DNA of 45,746 nucleotides from Escherichia phage vB_EcoS_AKS96, in the sequence record NC_024789.1; one strand, given 5' to 3'. Made by a program: the position numbers and the translations under genes. This document shows positions 8,648-45,445 of the stretch, one piece after another. Below the pieces are notes generated by a model, which was not told where the DNA came from, did no database searches, and worked only from the letters and a program-made list of their open reading frames with translations. The number at the start of each line of letters is the position of its first letter. Position 1 is the stretch's first letter.

Positions 8648-8671
8648 GGACGCTTTAGAGCGTCCTTTTTT
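8648..8671 (+). terminator. rho-independent terminator
   Basis: ggacgc-tttaga-gcgtcc plus tttttt. Confidence 0.6.
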
Positions 8672-8686
8672 GTATGGAGATATAAA

Positions 8687-9088
8687 ATGAATGAAGAAGT
8701 AATCGCATATATAAGGCAGCTGTACCCCCCACTTAACAATCAGCCTGATGATGTTCTTAATGCATGGATTGAGGTAGCTAAGCTGTTTATCTGCCTGGAT
8801 AAGTTTGGTGACAAGCAGGTTCAGGCATTAGCTTTCTACACTCTTCACTTGCTTAGTCAGGATATTGCGCTTAAGACTGAGAATGATTCAAGCCAGACAT
8901 CCTCTGACCGGGTTAAGTCCTACTCACTTTCAGGAGAGTACACGATTAGCTATGATACCAGCACTGCTGCCGCGAGCTCATCTAACCTTGAAGCATCCTC
9001 ATGGGGTAAGCTTTACATTGATTTGATGCGTCGCAAGGTTGGCCGCTGGGGTTTGATTACTTCTGGTGGGTCGAGGTGCTGCCGATGA
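8687..9088 (+). CDS. putative head-tail connector protein
   Basis: 133 aa; position between capsid and tail genes. Confidence 0.35.
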   Translation: MNEEVIAYIRQLYPPLNNQPDDVLNAWIEVAKLFICLDKFGDKQVQALAFYTLHLLSQDIALKTENDSSQTSSDRVKSYSLSGEYTISYDTSTAAASSSNLEASSWGKLYIDLMRRKVGRWGLITSGGSRCCR

Positions 9089-9453
9089 ATCATGCATTTT
9101 TGCAGCAGCAAATTAAGGCTGGTATTAATCTCCTGTCAGATGGCGATGGCGTTTTCGAAGCCACGACACAGCCAACCATCTCTATCGTGAATGGCTACGA
9201 AGTGCGCACGCCTGGCACTTCATATACAGTGCGAGGTGTTATACGTGAATTCAAGGCGCGAGACATTGACGGTGACATCATCAAATTCGGTGACCGTCGC
9301 GGAATTTTTACTACTGATTCAGTTGTATCGGAAGGTGACCGCATTTACATTGACCAGGAAGCATACACAGTAATAGACCCGCGACCAGTGAAGCCAACCG
9401 GTACGGTAATCGCCTACAGGCCAGTGCTACGTAGGGCTGCAACTTATGGCTAA
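9076..9453 (+). CDS. putative head closure protein
   Basis: 125 aa; overlapping start-stop with neighbours. Confidence 0.35.
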   Translation: MLPMNHAFLQQQIKAGINLLSDGDGVFEATTQPTISIVNGYEVRTPGTSYTVRGVIREFKARDIDGDIIKFGDRRGIFTTDSVVSEGDRIYIDQEAYTVIDPRPVKPTGTVIAYRPVLRRAATYG

Positions 9454-28531: not shown

Positions 28532-29455
28532 CTATGAATGCTTATCTATCAGATCTTGCGGGTTATATAACCTTCTTTCAAGCCCCATCTTGAAATTGCC
28601 ACCTTTAGGTATTACGACTTTTAGACCTCTATCATCAGCAACATAAAGCGACTCCTTTTCATCAGCTAAGCAAGCTATCCTGCACTCTTTATTCCTGAGT
28701 TCATAAGCAACCATTTCTAAGTTGTGGTGAGTTAGGCAGTCGTAAGTTGTCCTTTTTGTGCATGCCGATACATGTAGTGCGTTAATCCAGCCAACAGTGA
28801 GGTAGATAGCGCCATCACTACATTTACTTACCGGAACAACCGAGCCGCGAGTGTAGTCTTTTGCGAGATATGACTCATTACCCTCTTCATCTATAAACTT
28901 TACGTTACAAGGCTCATCTGATAAACCATCCTCGTAAACCATAAAGCATTGCTCGGCTATAATTTCTTCTCCAGACCCCTTTATTCCTATTTTGTATTCC
29001 CGTTCAGTAATAATTGCTTCAAATCTCGTAAGCTGTGTCATTTCTACAGACTTGGTGCGAGAGATTACCTTCTCGATTGATTCAATGGATGCCTGAGCGC
29101 CAAAGTTATATCTCTGAACTCGGCTCGCTGCTTTGTTTGCCTTCACTATGATTTCGACGGGAGTCAAATTAAGCCAGTCGCCAAGTAAATTTATAGCTTC
29201 CGCAAATCTAAGGCCGGAACATTTCATAACCCATCCTATTCCTGAGTCACTGCCGCACTTAGAGCAAACTGCGGCCCCATTACCTTTTTCGCTTCCTATT
29301 TCGTCTGTAAACCTGAATCTGTCAGTACCAAAGCAATAAGGGCACGGCCCGTGCTTCTTGCTAAGGTGTCTATCATTCCAACCAAGCTCCTTTGCATAAA
29401 ATGATTTCCACAATCCAGCCATTTTAGGTATTACTTCATTCTTGTCGTAATTCAT
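28532..29455 (-). CDS. DNA primase (zinc-ribbon type)
   Basis: HGPCPYCFGTDRFRF...CSKCG resembles the zinc-ribbon of phage primases. Confidence 0.6.
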   Translation of the reverse strand: MNYDKNEVIPKMAGLWKSFYAKELGWNDRHLSKKHGPCPYCFGTDRFRFTDEIGSEKGNGAAVCSKCGSDSGIGWVMKCSGLRFAEAINLLGDWLNLTPVEIIVKANKAASRVQRYNFGAQASIESIEKVISRTKSVEMTQLTRFEAIITEREYKIGIKGSGEEIIAEQCFMVYEDGLSDEPCNVKFIDEEGNESYLAKDYTRGSVVPVSKCSDGAIYLTVGWINALHVSACTKRTTYDCLTHHNLEMVAYELRNKECRIACLADEKESLYVADDRGLKVVIPKGGNFKMGLERRLYNPQDLIDKHS

Positions 29456-35051: not shown

Positions 35052-35065
35052 CACAAATAGTCAAG
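35047..35065 (+). promoter_or_regulatory. degenerate box copy (f)
   Basis: AATAGCACAAATAGTCAAG, followed by terminator rather than minus-10. Confidence 0.3.
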
Positions 35066-35070
35066 AAACT

Positions 35071-35092
35071 ACCCGCGAAAGCGGGTATTTTT
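35071..35092 (+). terminator. rho-independent terminator
   Basis: acccgc-gaaa-gcgggt plus T-run. Confidence 0.6.
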
Positions 35093-35116
35093 GTTTCACA
35101 CAACTGAGGAGGTAAT

Positions 35117-35608
35117 ATGAATTGGAATGATTTTCTCGAATATAGAGATGGAAAGCTTTACTGGACAGATCCACACTCAACAAAATTTAAGCCAGGGGAT
35201 GAGGCTGGATGTAGGCATCATAGGGGTTATCATTATATAAGGAGATATAACACCACGATGTCAAGGCATAGGATAGTATGGACAATGTTTAATGGAGAGA
35301 TACCGGAAGGCATGGAGATTGATCACATAGACCATGACGTTGAGAATGATCGGATTGAAAACCTAAGAATGGTTACAAGGAGGCAGAACAATCAAAACAA
35401 AAAGCTAGATGAAAGAAATACTAGCGGACATGTTGGGGTTAGTTGGAACAAGAAGACAAAAAAATGGAGAGCAATGATAGGTATAAAGGGTAATGACGGG
35501 AAGCGGAAAACGGTATATGTTTATTATGGTGACTCTTTCGACGACGCGGTATTGGCAAGGAAGAAAGCTGAAGCTGAATACTCATTTCATGAAAATCACG
35601 GAAAATAG
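35117..35608 (+). CDS. HNH homing endonuclease with AP2-like domain (paralog of 562-1077)
   Basis: EIDHIDHDVENDRIENLRMVTRRQNNQN; GHVGVSWNKKTKKWRAMIGIKG. Confidence 0.75.
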   Translation: MNWNDFLEYRDGKLYWTDPHSTKFKPGDEAGCRHHRGYHYIRRYNTTMSRHRIVWTMFNGEIPEGMEIDHIDHDVENDRIENLRMVTRRQNNQNKKLDERNTSGHVGVSWNKKTKKWRAMIGIKGNDGKRKTVYVYYGDSFDDAVLARKKAEAEYSFHENHGK

Positions 35609-37054: not shown

Positions 37055-37440
37055 TTATTGCAATCACATTGCTGACCGGCTGCTCTGTTATGTCAGCTAT
37101 TTCTGATTTATTACCGAGCAAGGATGGCATTGAAGCAACAGCGCAGGTTGGTGAGTCTAACCAGAAAACTGGCGTTGGATTATCCAACCAGACAGACAAA
37201 TCTAGCTCAACAGAGAGCGATATGCGCAACTCAACTAACAGAGATGTAGATTCATCAAGCCAGAAAAAGACTGCTGCTACGGGTCTCTCAGCTAACACAA
37301 TAACAGCTGAAAAGATTGAAATTCATAGCACTGAAAACTCTGGGGTTGACTCATTAGTCTGGGGTGTTTTGGCTGGATTGGTTTCGGGCATGATAACTTA
37401 CTTCGCTTTAAGATTTGCAGGAAATAAAAAAGGAGCCTAA
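37036..37440 (+). CDS. unimolecular spanin (u-spanin)
   Basis: N-terminal lipobox LLTGC plus C-terminal TMD LVWGVLAGLVSGMITYFAL. Confidence 0.6.
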   Translation: MRVGIIIIAITLLTGCSVMSAISDLLPSKDGIEATAQVGESNQKTGVGLSNQTDKSSSTESDMRNSTNRDVDSSSQKKTAATGLSANTITAEKIEIHSTENSGVDSLVWGVLAGLVSGMITYFALRFAGNKKGA

Positions 37441-37456
37441 TGGCTCCTTTCTTTTA
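37425..37456. terminator. bidirectional terminator between convergent operons
   Basis: aggagcc-taat-ggctcct flanked by A-run and T-run. Confidence 0.55.
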
Positions 37457-37789
37457 TGCGAACAATTGGTCGTCCGTCATTTCTTTTATGGTCATCATCT
37501 CATTAGTGTACTTATCGCTCTCACCCCCAAGGCATCTGAAGCTAAATTCGAAAGGTCGCTTCGTGCTTCCTTTGCTCCAGTAACTGCCATTAACTCCATC
37601 GATGTAACCTTCAGTCATGCATCTTGCCAGAAACTCCTTTGACGCAGATGATGCAAAGTAACGCGCATTAACTCCAGCTGCCTTAGCCATTCTTTCACAT
37701 TCTTTGTGGCGGTAAATGAATACCGCCAGGTGCTGCCTGTTAAACTTTTCGTAGCTCTCGCAGAACTTGAACACATCAAGGATGAACAT
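37454..37789 (-). CDS. hypothetical protein
   Basis: 111-aa ORF adjacent to the 527-aa gene. Confidence 0.4.
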   Translation of the reverse strand: MFILDVFKFCESYEKFNRQHLAVFIYRHKECERMAKAAGVNARYFASSASKEFLARCMTEGYIDGVNGSYWSKGSTKRPFEFSFRCLGGESDKYTNEMMTIKEMTDDQLFA

Positions 37790-37793
37790 TTAA

Positions 37794-39377
37794 TTACCCC
37801 AACAGCCGTGGATTGATATATACCTTGTCACCAATCAGGCAGGTATAGTTTTTATCATCAAGCATCGGCAGTAAGTGGTCTTTAATTTTAGCCATAACAC
37901 CAGCCTGTGACTCGAAAGGTCGAACCTTACGCGCAGCTTCATAAAGTGAACGCAAACCCACAACTCCTTTACTGTTCTTGCCTTGCTTGATAAGGATATC
38001 AATTAACTTGTTCATCTCAGCGTTATCGCCAGCATGACCAGCTGCGTTAGCTGAGGATAAGTAAGTCTTACTAAGTTCTCCAAACATCAACAAAGCCTCT
38101 TGCATGGTTTCCAGTTCAATCTCCCTGGACTTCTGCGGACTACCGCCATTTGGGTTAAACCAGTTACGGATAGTGTGAAGAACTGCAGCAATGCGAATTA
38201 CCTGTTTATCCATTTTACCTAACGCGCCGCGCAGCATTGTGTGTGAATACTTACCGCCATCTGCAAGGTGTGGCTCCATTTCCTGTCGAGCACGGTTAAG
38301 GTGCTTCATTGCTGAGTTACTAATAGTCAACTTCACATCTTGCTCACTCATAATTTCATGAACAAGACGGAAGTAATCAGCCTTCAACGCTCCGTCAATC
38401 GGCTCATATGTTGACTCGCCATTATCATCGACGAAAACACGCTCACCAAGGAATGACTTTTCACGCACAAGCAAGAAACGTTCGGATACACCAATACCGC
38501 GAGCACCAGCATTCATGATTGCGACTATTGTTTCATCCTGCGCAATTACAGAAATACACCCCATAGCAATAAAGCTCATGTTGTTCTCTGCGTTCGCACG
38601 CGCGATAGATACGTTACCAGCATCCCAGGCCTTAAGTACCAGTTCGCTGTTTGTTTTCTTTGTTCCATCACCATAGGTCATGCCCAGCAGTGAGTTGACG
38701 CTCGTCGCCTCATCCGAGATGACAGCGAAGCTACCCTGACGATGGTTAATGCGTGCCAGACCTTCAGGAGTAGTATCAGATACAGGGAATACGATGTCGC
38801 AAAGTTTCTCGAGCTTATCTTCCAGCTCCTCCTTCTCCTCAAACAAACCAGCCATCTCAGAAGGCGACTTCTCCTGCTTCATTTCTTTAGCCAGAGCCGA
38901 CAGCTTGGCCATAATCTTTTTACGGTCACGCTTACGCAGATCGTTTAGTCGCTCAGTCTCTGCAATCATTGGAGCCAGAGACAGCGAGTTAATGGCAGAT
39001 TTACCAGTTGATGGAGGCTGGCTGGTCACTACATACAGTGATGTTGGTTGTTGAGTTCCGTGATACTCAACCGTAAAGCGACCTAACATAGCTGCCGAGA
39101 TGCAACCAAGGAAGTGCATATAAGCAGATGATTCAGGAAACTGAACAGAACGAGCAATGTTGCTTGATAGTTTGCCAACTACATCATAGTCGTTACCAAG
39201 CGAGATAACAGGATACTTGTCGCCAGTAGAATCAATCTCAACCGGAGCTTTCCAGAATGATGCGCTCTGGCGATAACCGTTCGCATTAATAGCAACACGT
39301 AAAGGAGGTAACCCATCCTGAGCGGCAACAGCCATTACTTGTTCAACAGTCAATTTGTCATCATTAAAATCAAACAT
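37794..39377 (-). CDS. large hypothetical protein with possible deviant P-loop; paralog of 42634-43176
   Basis: 527 aa from MFDFNDDKL; termini match the 180-aa paralog; candidate Walker A SQPPSTGKS and Walker B FAVISDE. Confidence 0.5.
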   Translation of the reverse strand: MFDFNDDKLTVEQVMAVAAQDGLPPLRVAINANGYRQSASFWKAPVEIDSTGDKYPVISLGNDYDVVGKLSSNIARSVQFPESSAYMHFLGCISAAMLGRFTVEYHGTQQPTSLYVVTSQPPSTGKSAINSLSLAPMIAETERLNDLRKRDRKKIMAKLSALAKEMKQEKSPSEMAGLFEEKEELEDKLEKLCDIVFPVSDTTPEGLARINHRQGSFAVISDEATSVNSLLGMTYGDGTKKTNSELVLKAWDAGNVSIARANAENNMSFIAMGCISVIAQDETIVAIMNAGARGIGVSERFLLVREKSFLGERVFVDDNGESTYEPIDGALKADYFRLVHEIMSEQDVKLTISNSAMKHLNRARQEMEPHLADGGKYSHTMLRGALGKMDKQVIRIAAVLHTIRNWFNPNGGSPQKSREIELETMQEALLMFGELSKTYLSSANAAGHAGDNAEMNKLIDILIKQGKNSKGVVGLRSLYEAARKVRPFESQAGVMAKIKDHLLPMLDDKNYTCLIGDKVYINPRLLG

Positions 39378-39417
39378 TATCATCTCTCTCTAAATGCCCC
39401 CGAAGGGGCTTGACTAT

Positions 39418-39597
39418 TTACTTGATACGAACTTCAATCATCTGACCTTTATGAGGAAGATACAGCTTTGCGCGACCTCTAATCATTACGGTGATGATAT
39501 TCTCCTTAAGGTCAACGTGAAGTACTTTGCGGAACAGCGGCCCCATTTTTACCATCATGCCAGGTTTGATGTTTTCGATAGTAGTCATGATATCCAT
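39418..39597 (-). CDS. hypothetical small protein
   Basis: 59-aa ORF after cassette copy j. Confidence 0.3.
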   Translation of the reverse strand: MDIMTTIENIKPGMMVKMGPLFRKVLHVDLKENIITVMIRGRAKLYLPHKGQMIEVRIK

Positions 39598-39635
39598 TTT
39601 TTAGCCCTTTTAATGTATTTCGTTTCGATGAAGAG

Positions 39636-39681
39636 AATATATCAATTTTTGTTGTTAAGTTCTTTAGCAAAAAGTGCTATT
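39636..39681 (-). promoter_or_regulatory. conserved box-plus-minus-10 cassette (copy j)
   Basis: minus strand AATAGCACTTTTTGCTAAA, 23 bp, TATATT. Confidence 0.5.
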
Positions 39682-39796
39682 AAAGACCAACCAGACATTT
39701 GCCAACTACAACAGCGATTGCGCCCATGAAGCCAAAGAAACCAAACTTAATTACTTGTTCCATTACCGCATCAACTGCTTTAGAGATGTTTTTCAT
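39680..39796 (-). CDS. hypothetical small hydrophobic protein
   Basis: 38 aa from ATG 39796 (aaggtg RBS), hydrophobic C-terminus FGFFGFMGAIAVVV. Confidence 0.3.
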   Translation of the reverse strand: MKNISKAVDAVMEQVIKFGFFGFMGAIAVVVGKCLVGL

Positions 39797-39833
39797 TTTG
39801 TTCACCTTAGTTTTTGTCTTCTTGATGGAAACA

Positions 39834-39879
39834 AATATACCCGCCGAAGCGGGTACTGTCATTAGCAAAAAGTGCTATT
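39834..39879 (-). promoter_or_regulatory. conserved box-plus-minus-10 cassette (copy k)
   Basis: minus strand AATAGCACTTTTTGCTAA, 23 bp, TATATT. Confidence 0.45.
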
Positions 39880-40084
39880 TTTTTAAGTGCCCTGGCGCAT
39901 AGCATTTTCCATCCTTCTTATGCAAAACCCACCCAGCATATTTAAGTTGCCTTGCACAATCAGAAAAGTTCTCGCCCGCAGCGTCCGTATAGTGTGGCAT
40001 AAAATAAGAACCATCATCATTTGACTCAGTTGAGCACTTCTTACAGTCGCAATAAACAGCGATGGAATAACCTGAAACAATCAT
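39875..40084 (-). CDS. Cys-rich hypothetical protein
   Basis: 69 aa with CDCKKC and further Cys; ggagg RBS; ATGA coupling to upstream gene. Confidence 0.4.
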   Translation of the reverse strand: MIVSGYSIAVYCDCKKCSTESNDDGSYFMPHYTDAAGENFSDCARQLKYAGWVLHKKDGKCYAPGHLKK

Positions 40085-40434
40085 TTGTAAGCCTCCTCAA
40101 ACTTATACATCCCATAACCCACATCAAAGCCAACTTCTTCATCACGCGTCAACTGCCAGCCCTCGCCGTCTTCATCATAAATATACCCAGCGTTACGACC
40201 AAGTGATGCAGTCATTGATACCTGGTAACGCTTACCCTTACTGAAACTCTTCTTGAGTGGTGACTTGTGGTTCACGAAAGTGCAAAGCAAAGTCTTGGTC
40301 TTGACGTAACGACCCCGGCCGGTGAGATTTTGCCATTTACCATGAATCTTGATTTGCTCAATACCATCTTTAACGCGAGCTTTAAACAGATTGTTATCTG
40401 AGCTGATCCAGTTTTTAGTGATAGTGGTAGCCAT
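40081..40434 (-). CDS. hypothetical protein
   Basis: 117 aa, aaagga RBS. Confidence 0.4.
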   Translation of the reverse strand: MATTITKNWISSDNNLFKARVKDGIEQIKIHGKWQNLTGRGRYVKTKTLLCTFVNHKSPLKKSFSKGKRYQVSMTASLGRNAGYIYDEDGEGWQLTRDEEVGFDVGYGMYKFEEAYK

Positions 40435-40459
40435 TACTATTTTCCTTTTTGGTTTTTTA

Positions 40460-40762
40460 TTAGTTAGCGTTATGACGTTCGATATAGTCGCGGATTGTTT
40501 CGCCTACGCTTTTAGCGGCACCAAAAGTGCCCTTTGCGTGGCGTGAATCGCGGTACGTCTGGAAGAATTTACGAGCGATGTTTGCGAACATTGAACCAGT
40601 CACGCGAGCATCACCGAAATTTGTTTCGATAGCGTTGCTAATGCCATCCTTGAACTCATTTTCAGTCATGAACATCTCTGCCATGCCAGCAGTCTCGAAA
40701 AGGTTAGCTAATTCATTCATGTTGTTATGGTCTTCGGCTGTAAACAGGTTCATGTTAATCAT
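40460..40762 (-). CDS. hypothetical protein
   Basis: 100 aa downstream of cassette copy l. Confidence 0.4.
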   Translation of the reverse strand: MINMNLFTAEDHNNMNELANLFETAGMAEMFMTENEFKDGISNAIETNFGDARVTGSMFANIARKFFQTYRDSRHAKGTFGAAKSVGETIRDYIERHNAN

Positions 40763-40796
40763 CTTCGTGATTCCTTAGTTTCGTTTCGATGAGATG

Positions 40797-40841
40797 AATA
40801 TACAATAAAAGCCCCGAAGGGCTTTAGCAATTCGTGCTATT
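40797..40841 (-). promoter_or_regulatory. conserved box-plus-minus-10 cassette (copy l)
   Basis: minus strand AATAGCACGAATTGCTAAA, 22 bp, TATATT. Confidence 0.5.
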
Positions 40842-40989
40842 TCTTTGCTGCTTTTGCAATTGCCTTCTGGACGATGTTGAAGCTCTCAATCAAATCTTCT
40901 TTGAAGTAGTCACCAACAGGCCAACCCTTACCGCTGTACTTGGCTATGGTTTCTAGATCGTAATAGTTCAAGTCAGATGGCTTTAGCAT
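40837..40989 (-). CDS. hypothetical small protein
   Basis: 50-aa ORF, start adjacent to upstream stop, own stop is the TAG of box l. Confidence 0.3.
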   Translation of the reverse strand: MLKPSDLNYYDLETIAKYSGKGWPVGDYFKEDLIESFNIVQKAIAKAAKK

Positions 40990-41229
40990 TTACTTAACCT
41001 CATCAAAAGTTGCAACACCAGGGATAAACATTCCAACCTTCCAGCCAGAGATAGCAATCCAGCCGGAATCGTGCTTGTGAGGTCGCTCAGCGCCATTAAT
41101 AACCCACTCGTTAGGGATTGTTTTACCATTAATGATTAGAGGCTCAGCGTCGTATACGGAGCCTTTTATGAATGGTGTTAATACATTCTTATCCGCGCTT
41201 TGGATAACGTTGGTGCAGCGAATCTTCAT
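40990..41229 (-). CDS. hypothetical protein
   Basis: 79 aa. Confidence 0.4.
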   Translation of the reverse strand: MKIRCTNVIQSADKNVLTPFIKGSVYDAEPLIINGKTIPNEWVINGAERPHKHDSGWIAISGWKVGMFIPGVATFDEVK

Positions 41230-41444
41230 GCTACCACCTCAATTTCTTCATTACTAACAACAAACTGTTCACCTTGAAAGATTGCAAGAGTACCATCAAC
41301 ATATACATGATCCTTTAAACTCATCATGTAGAAGCCTTCAATCTCGTAAACTTCCACCTCCTCACCAATCTGATAGCCAAGTTCGGCAAGGCTCATTGAA
41401 TCTTCGTCGTACCTAATTTCGTTGTTGATAATAATCGCTTTCAT
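41226..41444 (-). CDS. hypothetical acidic protein
   Basis: 72 aa, first gene after cassette copy m. Confidence 0.4.
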   Translation of the reverse strand: MKAIIINNEIRYDEDSMSLAELGYQIGEEVEVYEIEGFYMMSLKDHVYVDGTLAIFQGEQFVVSNEEIEVVA

Positions 41445-41472
41445 GTTTCTTCTCCTCTCTGTTGATTAGCAA

Positions 41473-41518
41473 ACTATAGCCAGTCATGGTGGATTTGTCT
41501 TTAGCAAAAAGTGCTATT
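41473..41518 (-). promoter_or_regulatory. conserved box-plus-minus-10 cassette (copy m)
   Basis: minus strand AATAGCACTTTTTGCTAAA, 23 bp, TATAGT. Confidence 0.5.
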
Positions 41519-41529
41519 CGTCAGATTTA

Positions 41530-41650
41530 TGGATTGTTGCAGGCATTGCAATGATTCGCAGTACTATTGCATCTATAGAAATATTGCATCTGTCGCAATG
41601 ATTTTCTGGACTGTTGCGAATTTAGCAATGATTGATGGATTGATGGAATG
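41530..41650. repeat. iteron-like short direct repeats
   Basis: GCAATGATT x3 (41548, 41595, 41625), ATTGCATCT x2 (41567, 41583), TGGAYTGTTGC x2, tandem ATTGATGG x2. Confidence 0.6.
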
Positions 41651-41820
41651 AAAGGAAGGGCGTATCAACTAGTTGGTTGGTTTTAGCTTTCACAAGGAGC
41701 TTTCCTTTATGTACGCGTTATGGCTTGTTCAACCGTGTAGAGAAATTGCCATATTTACGCCATCCACGCCAGTTTACGCGCTGGTTACAAAATAAATCCC
41801 TTATATAACAACCCTTTAGA

Positions 41821-41843
41821 TTTATTATTATTATTATTATTAT
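41821..41843. repeat. (TTA)n microsatellite in AT-rich intergenic region
   Basis: about 7 TTA units; shorter counterpart at 22129-22140. Confidence 0.7.
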
Positions 41844-42060
41844 ATATGTTATTCCGTAACCATGATTATCTGAGATATTGGTGATATTTTTTTGATATTG
41901 CGCGGCGCATAAAGATTTAGATAAAGAGATAGGGATGCAAGCGGGGTGGCGAAAATGGCTTAACAGACCATAACGGCAATAACAGCCTTGATACGACTAG
42001 CGTCAGCATGTAACAATTTAGCATAACGTGCGATTACCGAGTTGAACGTGTAAATAACGC

Positions 42061-42088
42061 TTGCGACATTCACCAATCATGGTAAGAT
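42061..42088 (+). promoter_or_regulatory. candidate sigma70-type promoter for plus operon 42119 onward
   Basis: TTGCGA, 16 bp, TAAGAT, then leader aaacgagagga. Confidence 0.4.
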
Positions 42089-42118
42089 GCTCTCACACCA
42101 AACGAGAGGAGTAGTAAA

Positions 42119-42634
42119 ATGAGTAATACAATTCGTGAAGCAAACCCGACACTTGGCGACCTGGTGCGGCACCTTGTTAAGATGGCTCTTAATTCAGAGG
42201 ATGGAAGCGTAACAGTTCCCGTTAAGTTGCTTTACAAGAATCTTTACGGAGAAATTGATAACGACTATGTAGCAGCTGACTTTAGACCTGGCGGCAAATA
42301 TTCACTTCCAAAGCTTAAGGCTTCCTATGTTTCAAATACAGCCAGCAGAATGCAGGAAGTTAAAGACGCAGATAAGCGCGCAAGGTTCTCTTGTGGAGAG
42401 ATGGAGTATAATGGTGATGAGCATTATTGCGTAAAAATCACAATGGTCAACGGTGCTGTTAAGAATGGAACCCGAGCTAAGACAAACAGTCAATTAGAGG
42501 AGAAAGCGGTAAGCGAGTTTAAAGCTAGGCTACTTAAGCTTTCCCCCAGCGTAGCAGGAATGAGTGGAGATGAACTGAAGGGTGCGGTAGCTATGATTAA
42601 CGCATATCAGGAAATGATTAAGGAGACTAAATAA
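42119..42634 (+). CDS. hypothetical protein
   Basis: 171 aa, first gene of operon, gagagga RBS. Confidence 0.45.
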   Translation: MSNTIREANPTLGDLVRHLVKMALNSEDGSVTVPVKLLYKNLYGEIDNDYVAADFRPGGKYSLPKLKASYVSNTASRMQEVKDADKRARFSCGEMEYNGDEHYCVKITMVNGAVKNGTRAKTNSQLEEKAVSEFKARLLKLSPSVAGMSGDELKGAVAMINAYQEMIKETK

Positions 42635-43176
42635 TGTTTGATTTCAACGAGGATAAACTTACTCATGAGCAGGTGTTAGCGGTAGCAGCGGCAGACGATC
42701 TGCCCCCATTACGAGTATCAATAATTGCAAATGGTTATCGACAATCTGCAAATATATGGCCTGAGCTGGATAAGGTCAAAGATTTTGAACTAGACAGTGG
42801 AACTTTAAAGATTACTGAAATACTCATCAAGCAAGGGATGAACTCCAAAGGCGTTGTTGGTCTCAGGTCACTATATGAGGCGGCACGCAAAGTTAAGCCA
42901 TTCGATGGGCGAAATGGAGTAATGGAGGAGATTAAGGAAGTCATCATTCCAAATCTGGATAAGCTTGGCTATGCATGCCTAATTGGCGATAAGATTTATA
43001 TCAACCCTAGATTGCTGGATGGCAAGCAGGACTGGACTTACAAGGTCAAGCCACTGGAAGATGATTTCAACATCGAGGATTGTGAGAAGGTTGTCGACGA
43101 GATTATTGTCAAGGCTATCGATGAGCAGATCGAGAAGCTCAAGCGAAAGAAGAAATATCTCCTGACCGGTAAATAG
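42634..43176 (+). CDS. hypothetical protein, short paralog of 37794-39377
   Basis: 180 aa; N-terminus MFDFNEDKLTHEQVLAVAAADDLPPLRV and internal KGVVGLRSLYEAARKV...CLIGDKIYINPRLL match the large protein. Confidence 0.5.
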   Translation: MFDFNEDKLTHEQVLAVAAADDLPPLRVSIIANGYRQSANIWPELDKVKDFELDSGTLKITEILIKQGMNSKGVVGLRSLYEAARKVKPFDGRNGVMEEIKEVIIPNLDKLGYACLIGDKIYINPRLLDGKQDWTYKVKPLEDDFNIEDCEKVVDEIIVKAIDEQIEKLKRKKKYLLTGK

Positions 43177-43216
43177 CACGAATTGCTAAACAATAAATCG
43201 GGTAGTCAGCTATGAT
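43172..43216 (+). promoter_or_regulatory. conserved box-plus-minus-10 cassette (copy h)
   Basis: AATAGCACGAATTGCTAAA, 22 bp, TATGAT; contains stop TAG of 42634-43176. Confidence 0.5.
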
Positions 43217-43247
43217 TACCCCATCAACCAAACGAGAGGAATAAAAG

Positions 43248-43481
43248 ATGATCGTAATTAACCTATCTGAAAGGCAAGCCAAAGAGATTAAAGCAGTACT
43301 AATGCATTGCCTTAGCCGCAAGATGTTTAGCGCGTCAGAATCGCTTACAGAGGTTGTAAATCAGATTCGAAATCAGGAGTTTGAAGATATACTGCCGTGG
43401 GAAGAGGACTTGGCCTGGCTTGAGTACGAGCAGATTTGCACGGCACTATCAGGCTGCCAACTGGATAGCCAATACAAGTGA
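43248..43481 (+). CDS. hypothetical protein
   Basis: 77 aa after leader aaacgagagga. Confidence 0.4.
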   Translation: MIVINLSERQAKEIKAVLMHCLSRKMFSASESLTEVVNQIRNQEFEDILPWEEDLAWLEYEQICTALSGCQLDSQYK

Positions 43482-45369: not shown

Positions 45370-45445
45370 GTTCTGCTGGCGTAACAGGATAACGCAGAGA
45401 CCTCCTAAGTCTCAGTTACTGGTTCGAGTCCAGTGCGGAACACCA
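45370..45445 (+). tRNA. tRNA-Arg (anticodon CCU), CCA encoded
   Basis: hand-folded cloverleaf: 7-bp acceptor stem with one G-U, 4-bp D stem, 5-bp anticodon stem with loop CTCCTAA, T-loop TTCGAGT, 3' ACCA. Confidence 0.7.

Follow-up and report, generated by a model that had tools for sequence, protein, structure and literature searches.

Introduction

The papillomavirus E8^E2 protein, the phiX174 A* protein and the Tn5 inhibitor protein retain docking or DNA-binding modules without the activity of the parent protein and act by competition. Each of them is produced from the same gene as its parent, by way of internal starts or splicing. DUF3987 (PF13148) proteins are superfamily 6, MCM-related replicative helicases that have a C-terminal winged helix and are usually linked to a primase (PMC4889955). 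AgaPH, a distant member of this family, is an ATP-dependent 5′-3′ helicase that binds its own primase (PMC11724360). Here we describe a pair of genes in Escherichia phage vB_EcoS_AKS96 (NC_024789.1), a T1-like siphovirus (Rogunavirus; Rogunavirinae, Drexlerviridae) whose complete genome constitutes the 45,746-bp window that was analysed. One gene encodes a 527-amino-acid (aa) protein with the features of a DUF3987 helicase, whereas the other, on the opposite strand, encodes a 180-aa protein (the small protein) that corresponds to the two ends of the helicase and lacks its motor. The AKS96 genome paper discusses neither gene (PMC4070988).

By analogy, the small protein would have the concept of the truncated viral replication proteins in common, in that modules are kept and catalysis is absent. 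However, it differs from E8^E2, A* and the Tn5 inhibitor in being encoded by a separate, diverged and exchangeable gene on the opposite strand, joined from the two ends of its parent. The large protein is a full DUF3987 member: it matches the Pfam profile, has both Walker motifs and one resembling the MCM SRF motif, adopts an MCM-like AAA+ fold followed by a winged helix, and is accompanied by a primase in its genome, whereas the small protein keeps only parts that lie outside the DUF3987 domain. The described helicases usually have a primase that is fused or adjacent; in AKS96 the primase gene (28532-29455) lies about 8 kb from the helicase gene and is neither adjacent nor fused. The winged helix of the small protein and the helicase shares only 6-20% sequence identity with those of MCM, ORC and Cdc6. 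To our knowledge, the literature contains no free-standing winged-helix-only MCM paralogue with a role as a regulator. Public databases already contain both proteins, the small one within a PHROG family that carries no annotation, and we found no paper linking the small family to the helicase family. A separately encoded, diverged and exchanged 'ends-only' helicase paralogue is a new variant on the theme of truncated replication proteins.

The small protein consists of the two ends of the helicase and a tail

BLASTP aligned residues 1-50 of the small protein with residues 1-53 of the large protein (36/53 identical, 68%; E 3e-20) and residues 59-128 with residues 457-526 (49/70 identical, 70%; E 3e-31). 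Residues 54-456 of the large protein, about 403 in all, had no counterpart in the small protein. The DNA of the two genes could be aligned in three short stretches only, at 67-79% identity, and the flanks could not be aligned. The E values of the protein matches and the low DNA identity rule out an assembly repeat as well as chance similarity. A previous sequence-only reading of this DNA had placed both open reading frames (ORFs) where we find them, had matched the small protein to both ends of the large one, and had interpreted the pair as an old duplication in which the large copy carries about 400 extra central residues. Each of these points holds, whereas the unique tail, which that reading had put at 60 aa, measures 52 aa (coordinates of all features are given in Table 1).

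The small protein had no Pfam match at E ≤ 0.1, no AAA+ or DUF3987 domain, and no Walker motif in its 180 residues; searches against NCBIfam, PADLOC and PDB sequences also gave no match. It did match PHROG 7327 (function unknown) end to end, with residues 1-180 aligned to profile positions 1-179 (E 2.7e-85). Because the entire ATPase core is missing, the small protein is predicted to be incapable of ATP hydrolysis or unwinding, and its sequence marks it as a derivative of the helicase family. In RefSeq, two features of phage JK06 that lie under the match are labelled 'DNA helicase'; the small gene probably accounts for one, and given the absence of a motor this label would be wrong for it.

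An AlphaFold2 model of the small protein, built with 44 homologues, had a mean predicted local distance difference test score (pLDDT) of 82. It contains three short helices (residues 11-21, 25-33 and 36-41) at the positions that they occupy in the helicase model, followed by a winged helix at residues 55-123 with the order H-E-H-H-E-E (H, helix; E, strand). This winged helix equals residues 451-521 of the helicase element for element, the helicase elements being H451-468, E472-474, H475-482, H494-508, E512-515 and E518-521. Thus, the terminal regions of the two proteins have the same elements in the same order and position, and the likeness first seen in the letters extends to the predicted folds. 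The fold of the C-terminal (C) module was closest to the winged helices of ORC and Cdc6. The best structural match in BFVD was a 100%-identical 'uncharacterized protein' of AKS96. We also compared our model with the independently computed BFVD model of a 140-aa homologue from phage DTL, which consists of the N-terminal (N) module and the winged helix only. Since the two models superposed with a TM (template modelling) score of 0.85 over 131 columns, these two modules seem to take up a constant mutual orientation and to pack as one compact unit. In both proteins the N module is acidic (isoelectric point, pI, of about 4.5; 4.4 with a net charge of -2 in the helicase), whereas the winged helix is basic (pI 9.4 in the small protein and 9.7 in the helicase). 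Twenty-one residues were invariant among 44 small proteins, mostly within the shared modules.

The large protein belongs to the DUF3987/MCM-like helicases

The large protein matched Pfam DUF3987 with 146.6 bits (cut-off 27) over residues 83-432, and it also matched PHROG 2373, annotated 'DNA helicase'. Its AlphaFold2 model, built with 36 homologues (pLDDT 89.5; predicted TM score 0.87), matched the MCM-type AAA+ fold and also resembled the self-loading initiator helicases SaPI Rep and Cch. Invariant columns were scored over 36 homologues with identity down to 35%. Residues M1 and W42 were invariant in these helicases, as were the key residues of Walker A, of Walker B and of the SERF motif, which by comparison with the MCM SRF motif may be the arginine finger. 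A program-made ORF list starts the gene two codons earlier, with the ATG at 39383 (MIMFDF, 529 aa). We set the start at MFDF because all homologues are about 527 aa long and begin MFDF. On the strength of the Pfam and PHROG matches, the model, the invariant motifs and the literature on DUF3987 proteins, sequence and predicted structure identify the large protein as the replicative helicase of the phage, an ordinary member of a known family. [quoted passage not shown] Homology searches supplied a known family and architecture for the large protein, whereas for the small protein they led no further than PHROG 7327.

A single origin by duplication and internal deletion is the simplest history

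Neighbour-joining trees were constructed from the N modules, the C modules and their concatenation, using 36 helicases and 44 small proteins. The small proteins formed one clade in the concatenated and C-module trees. In the concatenated tree (125 alignment columns) this clade was sister to the Rogunavirus-type helicases, within the wider Drexlerviridae helicase tree. Bootstrap support was moderate, with 81% for monophyly of the small proteins and 72.5% for their grouping with the Rogunavirus-type helicases. Several independent origins of the small proteins are disfavoured by this monophyly. Because the small clade is nested among helicases, the simplest history would be that a Rogunavirus-type helicase gene was duplicated once in the E. 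coli T1-like lineage, and that one copy then lost its motor through an internal deletion and acquired a tail. The sequence-only reading had allowed for either gain or loss of the central domain; the nesting of the small clade inside the helicase tree supports loss and argues against gain. As for the source of the tail, no match was found in the DNA downstream of the helicase gene or elsewhere in the AKS96 genome.

Identity within the shared modules was 57-68% among small proteins and 59-71% between small proteins and helicases, and small proteins did not favour the helicase encoded by the same phage. The small proteins were about equally similar to every helicase because the helicases of these phages are 90-93% identical among themselves in these modules. 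Gene conversion or co-evolution with the helicase of the same genome was rejected on this basis.

The small gene is selected as a protein and exchanged as a cassette

The ratio of nonsynonymous to synonymous substitution rates (dN/dS, or omega) of the small gene was 0.13-0.30 in most pairs and 0.48 in the AHS24/e4-1c pair, whereas the helicase gene gave values of 0.02-0.04. Between AKS96 and the related Escherichia phage vB_EcoS_AHS24, dS was 0.12 for the helicase gene and saturated for the small gene; even at saturated dS, the omega of the small-gene N module was 0.11. Thus, the small gene is under purifying selection yet is far less constrained than the helicase gene and evolves faster. Intact small ORFs were found in 131 protein clusters at 90% identity.

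Comparison of AKS96 with AHS24 showed how sharply the small gene is delimited. Region 37400-43400 was about 96% identical across the 89% that could be aligned, and the remaining AKS96 genome was collinear with AHS24 at 93-97% identity. In a sliding DNA comparison, identity was 100% up to about position 42650, which corresponds to the first six codons of the small ORF, fell to 28-68% through position 43183, and then returned directly to 96-100%. The DNA around the small ORF was 93-100% identical, and the small-ORF segment was one of about six non-homologous segments genome-wide. At least three classes of small-protein alleles were distinguished. In phage RTP, the corresponding slot (1064-1383) contains the annotated 19-aa gene rtp2, encoding MFDFTEEKLTDEQVMRIVE followed by a stop codon, and then the lipoprotein gene rtp3. 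Judging from its sequence, rtp2 is a 19-codon remnant of the small-protein N terminus. Genes for a polynucleotide kinase (Pnk) and an Stp-like activator of PrrC lie downstream of the RTP slot. In the relative L015 the slot is filled by an unrelated 67-aa ORF that still begins MFDLDE. From the sharp AKS96/AHS24 breakpoints, the RTP remnant and the L015 replacement, the small ORF is recognizable as a cassette of the accessory region that can be dispensed with or exchanged and is anchored by a conserved 5′ end; the slot itself is a hot spot of recombination that takes up accessory cargo.

The tail also varies. Alleles of 140 aa without a tail occur in at least two lineages; besides DTL, such forms are present in the 12469I group, P0061 and P0118. 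The DTL ORF (8671-9192 region) stops at codon 141, and tail-homologous sequence runs on in frame past the stop. The tail is either dispensable or repeatedly being lost.

A profile of the small family searched against 1.84 billion representative proteins returned 58 matches, almost all of which were family members, fragments or T1-like helicases; no other architecture with the N or C module was found apart from AP2-repeat proteins. The latter are the eukaryote-like tandem AP2-repeat proteins P0271 and P0291, matched on the N module, in which a segment ahead of each AP2 domain (MTAEEALAAAEAEGLPLIRS...SGYKHV) aligns to the N-module profile (LT.EQV..A...LPPLRV....NGYRQS). We judged this to be a weak resemblance with an E value inflated by the repeats. 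Among GenBank phages, at least 60 records contained a protein that covered 71% or more of the small protein, and in 48 the coverage was at least 80%. Barring a few oddly labelled ones, these records are labelled as phages of E. coli, Shigella or related enterobacteria. A match to the helicase C terminus was present in 769 records, most of them without the small gene, Klebsiella phages being examples. Homologues of the small protein are present in the BASEL-collection phages AugustePiccard, JeanPiccard and JulesPiccard, which infect E. coli K-12. The phiKP26 record contains a second small-like ORF near its start (30-473) that is full of ambiguous bases and duplicates the gene at the record end; this extra copy is probably an artefact of the record end, whether from terminal redundancy or assembly.

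The small gene is linked to a DUF7174 gene

A DUF7174 gene was found directly 5′ of the small gene in all 14 loci carrying the small gene (14/14). In AKS96 the DUF7174 stop codon overlaps the small-gene start codon (TAATG), and an AAGGAG Shine-Dalgarno sequence lies inside the DUF7174 3′ end. The phage records with DUF7174 numbered 134 and were nearly all those of E. coli T1-like phages, and RTP and L015 carry DUF7174 without the small gene. The DUF7174 proteins of AKS96 and AHS24 are 100% identical, whereas their small proteins are just 42-50% identical. A candidate promoter for the DUF7174 and small-gene operon was read by eye (Table 1), and a similar TTGACT...TATGAT element lies near its position in some relatives, such as DTL. 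DUF7174 gave no match in NCBIfam, PADLOC or PDB, and PADLOC gave none for the small protein, DUF7174 or the neighbouring genes. Our searches of the literature on DUF7174, early transcription in Drexlerviridae and T1-like origins found nothing relevant.

Genome setting and an intergenic repeat array

The helicase gene and the small gene are located in separate, divergently oriented gene blocks, with the small gene among small accessory genes upstream of the terminase genes. The genome encodes a Zn-ribbon DnaG-type primase, a Cro-like regulator, a superfamily 2 helicase, a VRR-NUC nuclease, Erf and SSB; no DNA polymerase gene was found in it. A gene for a 111-aa protein adjoins the helicase gene in AKS96 and in 19 other loci, that is, in every locus for which the helicase 3′ flank was recovered.

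Intergenic region 41445-42118, between the helicase-side and small-protein-side blocks, contains four palindromic TTGC-N7-GCAAT(GATT) boxes at 41537, 41567, 41584 and 41614. These are followed by TTACGC-type repeats (about 41752-41790) and then by an (ATT)n tract (41823-41845). Both the boxes and the ATT tract are kept in AHS24, e4/1c, DTL, IME253 and 12469I, while the flanks diverge. The whole element (41536-41845) is a candidate for an operator array or for an origin of replication; T1-like phages have no defined origin (PMC11447400). Multi-copy direct repeats or iterons inside or beside the small gene were sought in three allele classes and none were found. A lambda O-type initiator, with iterons in the gene that co-vary with the allele, was rejected because iterons are absent and the upstream box array is conserved across allele classes.

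Elsewhere in the genome, an ORF at 35117-35608 encodes an HNH + AP2 homing endonuclease. It is a mobile insertion polymorphism, since 35054-35603 has no counterpart in AHS24, in which HNH genes occupy other sites. A tRNA-Arg gene (anticodon CCT) at 45370-45445, near the right end, is also present in AHS24. A 99-aa ORF at 43726-44025 matches the C-terminal third only of several PHROG families with profiles of 181-253 positions, among them phrog_2452 (positions 151-233 of 235) and phrog_17613, an 'ATPase' (172-243 of 246). This ORF, in the same accessory region, may be a further case of a larger protein reduced to a domain.

Table 1. Coordinates of the features discussed in the text, as positions in the AKS96 genome
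Feature	Position	Strand	Remarks
Motor-less helicase paralogue (small protein), 180 aa	42634..43176	+	PHROG 7327; stop codon 43174-43176
Small-protein N module	42634-42759	+	
Small-protein linker	42760-42807	+	
Small-protein winged helix	42808-43017	+	
Small-protein tail, residues 129-180 (52 aa)	43018-43173	+	
DUF3987/MCM-like AAA+ replicative helicase (predicted), 527 aa	37794..39377	-	Stop codon 37794-37796
Helicase N-terminal module, residues 1-42	39252..39377	-	Helices 11-21, 25-33, 36-41; BLASTP and model; shared with small protein
AAA+ motor core, residues 83-432	38082..39131	-	DUF3987 Pfam match; not in small protein
Walker A, QPPSTGKS, residues 120-127	38997-39020	-	Invariant G125, K126, S127
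Walker B, FAVISDE, residues 217-223	38709-38729	-	Invariant F217, S221, E223
SERF, MCM 'SRF'-like motif, residues 298-301	38475-38486	-	Invariant E299, R300
Helicase C-terminal winged helix, residues 457-527	37797..38009	-	BLASTP and model; shared with small protein
DUF7174 protein, 171 aa, rtp1-like	42119..42634	+	Pfam PF23796, E 1.5e-49; directly upstream of small gene
Candidate sigma-70 promoter of DUF7174 and small-gene operon	42061..42088	+	TTGCGA, 16 nucleotides, TGgTAAGAT; read by eye, below scan threshold; low confidence
111-aa protein	37454..37789	-	PHROG 2794, function unknown; directly 3′ of helicase gene

Possible modes of action of the small protein

Because ATP hydrolysis and unwinding would not be possible, the small protein is expected to act by docking. 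The reading that we put first, and hold only tentatively, is that it is a competitive mimic or adaptor, with its partner left unspecified, that presents the docking modules of the helicase and is not essential. According to this model, the small gene would be co-translated with DUF7174 from an operon separate from the helicase gene, and its product would occupy whatever the helicase docks onto through its N module and winged helix. As a competitor or as a bridge, it could then modulate helicase recruitment or loading. Candidate docking partners are origin or fork DNA, the phage DnaG-type primase and a host replisome factor, the last because the phage has no DNA polymerase of its own. These candidates are proposed by analogy with the winged helices of MCM, ORC and Cdc6 and with the primase-binding N-terminal regions of other DUF3987 helicases. 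The strain-variable alleles suggest that such a protein may take part in conflict, either with the host or with co-infecting relatives. The regulator/effector pair suggested in the sequence-only reading is conjectural: the two genes stand in different gene blocks, and the small gene is dispensable in relatives and exchanges alleles while the helicase stays as it is. An accessory, hypervariable and swappable gene argues against an essential initiator and is more typical of genes for host or inter-phage conflict.

Several observations weigh against the mimic or adaptor. The third (recognition) helix of the winged helix, VMEEIKEVIIPNLDK, is acidic and hydrophobic rather than basic, an unusual character for a helix that reads specific DNA sequences. 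Proteins rather than DNA are the ligands of many winged helices. Since the alleles swap without a matching change in the helicase, the primase or DUF7174, there is no co-variation signal for a phage partner. By imitating a helicase that is the phage's own and highly conserved, a mimic would hamper replication of the phage itself unless timing or dosage were controlled, and early expression of the small gene is assumed from gene position. A 'replisome mimic', in which free-standing helicase docking modules are exchanged and used in conflict, seems to us improbable. Such a protein would decoy a host sensor or factor, or would block loading on competing genomes, in which case the allele classes would be compatibility groups among co-circulating T1-like phages.

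The mimic or adaptor overlaps in part with the other explanations that we considered. One of these, which we regard as unlikely, is that the small protein is an origin-binding initiator or a helper in helicase loading, such that both winged helices read the phage origin, for example the element at 41536-41845, and the small protein nucleates or gates helicase assembly. It would then resemble the truncated or accessory origin-binding proteins that control initiator helicases, such as papillomavirus E2 and E8^E2 and the C-terminal domain of SaPI Rep. The basic C module (pI 9.4-9.7), its nearness in fold to the winged helices of ORC and Cdc6, and the likeness of the helicase model to self-loading initiators are consistent with this explanation, as are the conserved repeat array and (ATT)n tract in the divergent intergenic region beside the small-protein operon and the lack of a defined origin in T1-like phages. 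However, relatives in which the small gene is absent or replaced keep the helicase, which argues against an essential initiator, and the box array is conserved despite very different small alleles, so that allele and site do not co-vary. The lack of iterons in and beside the small gene, as seen for three classes of alleles, and the character of the recognition helix also count against origin reading. An anti-defence decoy or inter-phage weapon, in which the small protein would absorb an immune sensor of the host that recognizes the helicase, or act as a poison of helicase or replisome in rival T1-like phages, without a role in controlling the replication of its own phage, has to our minds a similarly low probability. 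In its favour, the gene is non-essential, evolves 5-10 times faster than the helicase gene, and occupies an accessory slot that is hypervariable, with three or more classes of alleles and sharp breakpoints of recombination; in RTP this slot and its neighbours hold the lipoprotein, polynucleotide kinase and Stp-like PrrC activator genes, which are classic host-conflict genes. On the other hand, we know of no defence system that senses DUF3987 helicases. The helicase-triggered retron Eco11 answers UvsW/D10-type helicases and not DUF3987 (PMC12746101), and PADLOC gave no matches. A decoy should keep resembling the near-invariant helicase, yet some alleles have only 46-50% winged-helix identity, and a poison would strike the phage's own helicase too.

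The small protein could mainly be a subunit with, or a regulator of, the upstream DUF7174 protein, its helicase likeness being historical only. The invariable adjacency of the two genes, their stop/start overlap and their confinement to the same E. coli T1-like lineage fit this explanation, which we nevertheless find quite doubtful. DUF7174 occurs without the small gene in RTP and L015, identical DUF7174 proteins accompany strongly diverged small proteins in AKS96 and AHS24, making a co-evolving interface unlikely unless it lies on conserved residues, and the conservation of helicase-like residues would be left unexplained. Least credible of all is a functionless relic, which would be what a deletion left of a duplicated helicase gene, now decaying and hitch-hiking with its neighbours. 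Dispensability in some relatives, the alleles cut to 140 aa and the in-frame tail sequence past the DTL stop are what one would expect of decay. In contrast, the number of clusters with intact ORFs, dN/dS values well below one (0.13-0.30, mostly at high dS), the 21 invariant residues in 44 sequences, the conserved translational coupling and good Shine-Dalgarno sequence, and a compact, confidently predicted fold already disfavour a relic.

Significance for T1-like phages

T1-like phages have their own helicase and primase and use the host polymerase. The small protein would offer a way to their origin and helicase-loading route, as its stand-alone peripheral modules isolate surfaces that are likely to mediate recruitment and could serve as bait for helicase partners and the origin. 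The presence of homologues in BASEL phages that infect E. coli K-12 makes the genetics straightforward. If the small protein has only a minor role in fitness, a correction of annotation remains, in that the small protein is no helicase and the large protein is not of unknown function. If instead the competitive mimic proves true, the known means of regulating or sabotaging viral replication would be joined by a swappable 'motor-less helicase' with a gene of its own.

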